64,000 nucleotides of DNA. Origin: an uncultured Chlamydiaceae bacterium (GTDB lineage Bacteria > Chlamydiota > Chlamydiia > Chlamydiales > JAAKFR01). Positions 33,944 to 34,104 of this stretch are shown piece after piece. The notes beneath the pieces were generated by a model. It ran no database searches. It saw nothing but the letters and a program-made list of their open reading frames with translations, and was not told the DNA's origin. How positions within the stretch are numbered: the first letter of the stretch is position 1; each line of letters opens with the position of its first letter. Where the stretch lies: assembly GCA_942490925.1 (NCBI GenBank), contig CALNYX010000017.1, positions 1,281,159-1,345,158 of the forward strand. Reading direction: 5' to 3'. Both the position numbers and the translations under genes were made by a program.

Positions 33944-34104
33944 GAAGCGCCTGTAAAATGCCCATATTGGAGATGGCTCCGAGATTTGCGTCAGAACTAA
34001 ATTTGGAGCCCAACGCTAACTCCTCGTGAGTTAGTGAGGGCGAGAATGACGTTCTGGCGGAAAGACCGGTGCTAGATCCGATGTATGCATTTTACAGGCG
34101 CTTC
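33944..34104 (+). repeat. Copy A of a ~160-nt imperfect-palindrome repeat family
   Basis: The 18-nt arms gaagcgcctgtaaaatgc (33944-33961) and gcattttacaggcgcttc (34087-34104) are perfectly complementary. An inner helix pairs cgtcagaac (33989-33997) with gttctggcg (34051-34059), and there is a hairpin gctaac/gttagt (34015-34035). The flanks are TTTA/TTTA. Confidence 0.85.

Follow-up and report, generated by a model that had tools for sequence, protein, structure and literature searches.

The general features of non-autonomous transposable elements of the MITE type have been reviewed (PMC10969869), and the same review covers the Rickettsia palindromic elements (RPE), the cutting of Correia RNA hairpins by RNase III and the orientation-dependent effect of ERIC on mRNA stability. 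The MITE-like element bcr1 of the Bacillus cereus group is about 155 bp long and transcribed, has direct repeats and shows base-pair compensation, and its copies are of varying stability (PMC3184786). Hairpin repeats of the REPIN type were found in the PVC superphylum (PMC3733652). As for small mobile repeats in Chlamydiae, 'Chlamydia' is mentioned in neither PMC10969869 nor PMC3184786.

The palindromic element considered here is present in three copies (A, B and C, Table 1) in the window, that is, the whole 64-kb stretch of chlamydial DNA that was analysed (64,000 nt). These copies align from end to end, as the preliminary description had stated, with a mean column identity of 82%, and the core strings quoted there as identical in A and B are present in both. 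The nhmmer profile of the three copies matched exactly three places of the window (E-values of 1e-51, 4e-50 and 3e-47), the best unrelated match having an E-value near 1, and no fourth copy was found in the 64 kb by nhmmer --max or by a covariance model. In our opinion, the element is very probably a non-autonomous transposable element (MITE) of 161 ± 1 bp belonging to a new family.

Table 1. Positions of the element copies, their flanking duplications and the more conserved part of the element in the window.
Feature	Position	Strand	Length or right-hand counterpart	Basis
Copy A	33944-34104	+ (sense strand)	161 nt	alignment, profile and covariance-model matches
Copy B	54763-54922	+ (sense strand)	160 nt	alignment, profile and covariance-model matches
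Copy C	9833-9993	- (sense strand)	161 nt	alignment, profile and covariance-model matches
Left duplication of A, TTTA	33940-33943	+	TTTA, 34105-34108	
Left duplication of B, GTAA	54759-54762	+	GTAG, 54923-54926 (3/4 matching)	
Left duplication of C, AAAA	9994-9997	-	AAAA, 9829-9832	
Apical half of A, more conserved (element positions 38-120)	33981-34063	+		inter-copy identity

It had been proposed to look for copies beyond the window, and eight further full copies (E-L) were recovered from two genomes and one metagenome contig, which gives 11 copies (A, B, C, E, F, G, H, I, J, K and L) of 160-162 nt. They were reached through the incidental 54-codon ORF of copy C: its peptide was searched against protein libraries, where eight more such internal ORFs were found, and the DNA of short contigs encoding matching peptides was then taken for the copy sequences. 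Six of these eight ORFs (P0124-P0129) lie on the same 1,802,975-nt contig as the window copies, so that the source genome (1.80 Mb) contains at least nine copies, namely A, B, C and the six ORF-bearing ones. The DNA sequences of E, F and G (ORFs P0125, P0128 and P0129) were taken from short-read assemblies. Copy H, damaged at its 5' end, is located on a 542-nt metagenome contig. A weaker match of the peptide search led to a 20-kb stretch of the Chlamydiales MAG GCA_022599525.1, in which four full copies (I, J, K and L) and one fragment were found. The epimerase homologue of this MAG is 40% identical to the epimerase of the window; its copies of the element are 161-162 nt long and 53-71% identical to those of the window.

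Searches with two core patterns across GTDB representative genomes and JGI metagenomes gave nothing, or matches to the pattern only (nhmmer check), and one core pattern gave no true copy across viral contigs. The patterns were too strict, requiring AATGACG where the copies of the second MAG have AATGATG; moreover, the collections scanned by pattern either lack the source genome or have it masked. No match to the element was obtained by blastn against plasmids and phages. Logan short-read contigs of the same organism end inside C (element position 94) and inside B (15 nt in), as expected of a dispersed repeat or a hairpin.

At 18961-19017 of the GCA_022599525.1 stretch, about 70 nt from the full copy I, there is a composite fragment with a K-type 5' end (GGAAGTCCTGATTAA) and, directly after it, the 5' half of a copy of the I/J type. 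It has the appearance of debris from nested or rearranged elements.

Mobility of the element was demonstrated by target-site duplications and by an empty site at the junction of the aspartate aminotransferase gene (aspAT) and mreC. In the ten copies with both flanks readable, 34 of 40 positions of the 4-nt flanks match and five pairs are perfect, while flanks paired across different copies match on average at 2.2 of 4 positions (permutation test, p = 1e-5). The flanking 4-mers reported earlier for the window copies are all as given. The duplicated words are T/A-rich (TTTA, TTAA, TTAG, TTTG, GTAA, AAAA and ATAW), and in B, F and G the stop codon of the upstream gene lies inside the duplicated word.

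The gene order SDF transporter - aspAT - mreC is kept in two relatives, in which the latter two genes either overlap (by 20 nt) or are separated by 11 nt; the window spacer is 164 nt long and is essentially copy C. After removal of C with one AAAA, aspAT ends with ...GCG ATT AAA AAA AGC TCT GCA TGA (...AIKKSSA and stop), and this stop overlaps the ATG of mreC (ATGA), which is a standard coupled junction. Copy F is inserted between a stop codon and the start of sctN (T3SS), where the junction is otherwise TAAgATG, and copy G, antisense to both genes, is inserted in the ptsH-ptsI junction, which is otherwise TAAATG.

Genes around the window copies are housekeeping ones: aspAT, mreC, trkA/trkH, an MFS transporter gene and that of a GroEL paralogue. 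The aspAT protein was matched at 100% identity on the 1,802,975-nt contig alone; its next-best relatives are 54-56% identical, and the named ones belong to Chlamydiales, in agreement with the Chlamydiota assumed in the preliminary description. Copy C fills the aspAT-mreC spacer in the same direction as both genes, and the aspAT stop TGA occupies element positions 9-11 (window 9985-9983). The stop TAA of trkH abuts the 5' end of copy B. The convergent MFS gene ends within the 3' arm of this copy, which contains its final three codons and its TGA stop (54912-54914). The clipping of gene 3' ends is as noted in the preliminary description. Copy A has on one side the end of a 938-aa gene (stop at 34150, - strand) and on the other the promoter region of a gene for a porin-like protein (start at 33704, - strand); being on the + strand, it is antisense to both neighbours. 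Relative to the host genes, the sense orientation is found in C, F, H and L and the antisense orientation in A, E, G and K, while the neighbours of B, I and J are convergent, so that the orientation does vary relative to flanking transcription, as had been suggested. Both orientations occur at tight operon junctions.

Judging from the sequence, aspAT and the MFS gene have gained new stop codons and C-termini from the element, and the aspAT-mreC, T3SS (sctN) and ptsH-ptsI junctions have each received a 165-nt in-frame wedge. Any transcript crossing a copy would hold a long double-stranded hairpin of the kind that RNase III cuts in Correia-bearing mRNAs. The element and its duplication together make 165 nt, or 55 codons, and many copies keep an open frame from an ATG at element positions 15-17; through C (window 9815-9979, - strand), F and H this frame ends at a TGA overlapping the ATG of the next gene. 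Gene callers annotate the element ORFs (P0123-P0129 and P0131) as proteins of about 50 aa. A small protein gene was rejected as an identity, since the substitutions show no 3-periodicity, the three codon phases having pairwise differences of 0.30, 0.28 and 0.31.

Several observations concern the neighbourhoods of individual copies. A divergent 243-aa gene starts 2 nt beyond the 5' end of copy E (contig 720-760), and the reverse complement of this end, CCGAGGATTCatATG, has GAGGA 5 nt upstream of the ATG of that gene; copy E may supply its ribosome-binding site. The 938-aa ORF adjoining copy A (34150-36966, - strand) has no Pfam match at E <= 0.001. On the other side of A, the 484-aa protein (32250-33704, - strand) has a signal-peptide-like N-terminus and a sub-threshold Porin_5 match (18.9 bits, cut-off 22), and is possibly a porin of the outer membrane specific to this lineage; upstream of its gene, at 33742-33714, there is a promoter-like site. 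Copy A is bracketed by a 30-nt inverted repeat (33762-33791 and 34129-34158, 24 of 30 positions complementary). The 246-nt region without A and one duplication has a predicted fold of -78.3 kcal/mol (z -3.6). No second copy of this inverted repeat was found among the sequences examined, and it may be a remnant of another palindromic element hit by A.

As regards the MITE reading, the element is small, below the limit of about 300-500 bp, and non-coding; its ends pair over about 17-18 nt in every copy as terminal inverted repeats; it is accompanied by target-site duplications; its copies are dispersed, and the two relatives have the locus without it. A transposase acting in trans would move the element by making cuts with a 4-bp stagger at tetranucleotides rich in T and A (TTTA, TTAA, TTAG, TTTG, GTAA and the like). 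In a compact genome, the insertions tolerated would be mostly those at stop codons or at the junctions of operons, which matches the positions of the copies. Selection has kept the fold of one strand during the spread of the family.

No transposase-sized element with matching ends was found within the window. As to the identity of the transposase, we infer that an IS5-group enzyme may be the best lead, and a lead only, from the 4-bp duplications at TTAG/TTAA-type targets and from a resemblance of the termini. Members of the IS5 group produce 4-bp duplications at targets of the TTAG/TTAA type (YTAR). Duplications TTAG/TTAA are found in I, K, F and L, and TTTA, TTTG, AAAA, GTAA and ATAW also occur; as a set, the duplicated words fit YTAR only partially. 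The termini of the element include those of the types GGAAGCCCTGATTAAC and GAAGCCTCTGATTAATG. The first is the end of copy K, which agreed in a post hoc search with the IS5 end GGAAGGTGCGAATAAG (IS5A of E. coli K-12) at 10 of 16 positions, the matching stretches including GGAAG and GA-TAA. Most copies begin with GAAG or GGAG, not GGAAG.

All 11 copies fold into one long hairpin, whose interruptions by internal loops fall at corresponding positions. Over its full length the element is an imperfect palindrome, a single strand of which would form a hairpin of about 61-65 bp. The predicted fold of copy A has an energy of -92.3 kcal/mol against -42.8 ± 3.7 for shuffled sequences (z -13.4, none of 200 shuffles being as good), and the values for B and C are -89.5 and -78.8 kcal/mol. 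The apical half includes the inner helix CGTCAGAAC/GTTCTGGCG, the internal loops CTAAATT and GAATGAC and the apical stem GCTAAC...GTTAG. Several copies are degraded, with folds of -54 (F), -66 (G) and -64 kcal/mol (H) against about -90 kcal/mol for A, B, J and L; older copies decay. An integron attC site was rejected by reasoning, because the GTTAG/CTAAC boxes are at the apex of the hairpin and not at its base, and the copies are at junctions of housekeeping genes and not in cassette arrays.

The preliminary description held that the outer arms differ between copies and remain complementary within each, and 18 of 65 pairs are indeed changed on both sides in the alignment of A, B and C, with 94% of cells paired; none of 500 shuffles reached 18 pairs, and alignments with a slid register gave 0-4. 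Support in the covariation test proposed there grows with the number of copies. With seven copies, 30 of 65 pairs were changed on both sides (0 of 500 shuffles; 5-10 in slid controls), and RNAalifold for all 11 gave 61 pairs, 37 of which have at least one copy keeping the pairing through a two-sided change. The A:U to G:C switch described in the inner helix of C was confirmed (column 53:109), but the arms of C were mistyped in that description and read cgttagagc/gctctggtg.

Compensation of this kind could also be produced, instead of by selection, by templated correction of one arm from the other, as in quasi-palindrome template switching or cruciform repair. The outer arms of A, which are perfectly Watson-Crick paired over 18 bp in spite of many differences from B and C, speak for such a process, as do whole blocks, AAA/TTT versus TTA/TAA for example, that switch together between copies. 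However, correction should erase wobble pairs and bulges, and both the G:U positions and the internal loops occur at constant columns across copies and both genomes (for example, 22:141 and 72:93). A ratio of G:U to A·C of about five to one is also not expected of a strand-symmetric DNA process, and we regard this origin of the compensation as highly improbable.

In all 11 copies it is one and the same strand that has the more stable fold, the difference from the complement being 7-37 kcal/mol. Cells of the consensus structure contain 75 G:U against 14 A·C (35 against 12 by columns). Comparison of close pairs of copies gave ratios of Watson-Crick/G:U interchanges to changes into A·C of 9:1 (C/E), 10:2 (C/F), 10:1 (I/L), 5:2 (A/B) and 4:2 (I/J). 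Taken together, the compensatory changes and the excess of G:U over A·C indicate that the pairing of one specific single strand was selected. Transcription of host genes was ruled out as the source of this strand rule, the antisense position of A, E, G and K standing against the sense position of C, F, H and L. Replication was rejected too: the window has a negative GC skew throughout, but the + strand carries A and B and the - strand carries C.

The conservation of the element stands against the MITE reading in one respect, since conservation is lowest in the outer arms, the expected binding place of a transposase (basal arms 58-72% identical between copies, apical half 75-87%). The ends of classical MITEs are better conserved than the interior, the reverse of what is found here, and a DDE transposase working on double-stranded ends does not require co-variation of the arms. 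The strand-specific G:U excess is not accounted for by a cut-and-paste mechanism. The strand bias may come from selection acting only in a still-spreading lineage, from transcription of the element itself or from a single-stranded transposition intermediate. It is rather unlikely that the element gives its own hairpin RNA of ~160 nt with a cellular role, or that it passes through a single-stranded hairpin intermediate with 4-bp duplications. Such an RNA could be a regulator processed by RNase III or a double-stranded RNA mimic intended for a eukaryotic host. We know of no bacterial element that combines a single-stranded (RNA or DNA) hairpin intermediate with 4-bp target duplications.

Mobilisation of the hairpin as single-stranded DNA by a HUH/Y1 enzyme, in the manner of REPIN/RAYT or of palindrome-associated IS200/IS605 elements, would account for the conservation of one strand's fold in place of the end sequences. 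The co-varying arms, the strand-specific fold with its tolerance of G:T pairs and the occurrence of REPIN-type repeats in the PVC superphylum are in its favour. Nevertheless, REPIN/RAYT and IS200/IS605 systems insert beside a fixed tetra- or pentanucleotide with no target duplication, whereas the 4-nt duplications found here are significant and variable in sequence. Neither a GTAG or CGTC tag at the element ends nor a constant flank tag is present, and the sense strand is independent of the direction of replication. Such mobilisation seems very unlikely.

The preliminary description left the choice between a mobile MITE-like palindrome and a structured-RNA gene family, and it is the first that is borne out by the duplications, the empty junction and the decay of copies. 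According to the second, the copies would be multi-copy small-RNA genes, each transcribed by itself to yield a ~160-nt hairpin RNA that might serve as an RNase III-processed regulator or as a protein sponge. The strong covariation, the preference for one strand in all copies with its G:U excess, the fixed length and the internal loops kept between organisms with about 40% identical proteins are in line with this idea. Scans around A, B and C, however, revealed no shared promoter or terminator, there being neither a common upstream promoter-like site nor a U-tract after the hairpin. The Rfam check suggested earlier showed no known family at gathering or permissive thresholds: over the window only tRNAs reach the gathering threshold, and the best permissive match of copy A, to the plant microRNA precursor MIR8565 (29 bits against a threshold of 136), reflects merely a long hairpin. 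Target-site duplications around the copies, the interruption of gene 3' ends and of operon junctions that are tight in relatives, and the decay of several copies also argue against RNA genes, which we consider very unlikely.

The family is common to chlamydiae with no more than about 40-55% identity between their proteins. Its presence in distant environmental chlamydiae points to the movement of mobile DNA between intracellular lineages. The element has practical consequences as well. It breaks short-read assemblies, yields spurious ORF calls of ~50 aa and alters the ends of genes and the junctions within operons (aspAT-mreC, sctN, ptsHI and trkH), and for these reasons annotators of such genomes should mask it. 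With 37 compensated pairs in 11 copies, it also demonstrates that strong covariation alone is no proof of an RNA gene. The strand-specific fold is the single aspect that could lead to something new.

Among the known systems, the IS5 group, a possible parent, has 4-bp duplications of the TTAG/TTAA type like the element and an end that partly resembles that of copy K, but the duplications AAAA, TTTG and GTAA deviate from YTAR, most copies start with GAAG or GGAG, and no transposase gene was seen. The element resembles bcr1 in its size, dispersed and non-coding character, short direct repeats, compensatory changes and stability falling with age; compared by description, bcr1 differs in its cruciform-like structure of two stem-loops with 5-bp repeats, against a single hairpin with 4-bp ones here, and it belongs to another host phylum. 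Correia elements of Neisseria (CREE/nemis) are likewise inverted-repeat hairpins of about 100-160 bp situated beside genes and co-transcribed with them, and cleavage of the present hairpin by RNase III is likely by analogy with Correia RNA. Their target duplication is TA, and they contain promoters and sites for IHF, whereas the element, again compared by description, has variable 4-nt duplications, and no promoter-like site shared by its copies was found around A, B and C.

ERIC of enterobacteria is also an imperfect palindrome of similar size located in transcribed intergenic regions or at gene 3' ends; blastn with a word size of 11 against 5,426 E. coli genomes, which bear ERIC, gave no match to the element. 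With RPE the element has in common a palindromic repeat, an obligate intracellular host and the possibility of in-frame entry, offered here by the 165-nt unit and the many open copies. Unlike RPE, no copy was seen inside a protein body among the copies examined, and copy C, although inserted in frame, truncates aspAT by its own TGA with no read-through. Summarizing these comparisons, it may be concluded that the element is comparable in kind to bcr1, Correia, ERIC and RPE, yet, as far as sequence and duplication length were compared, is a member of none of these families.
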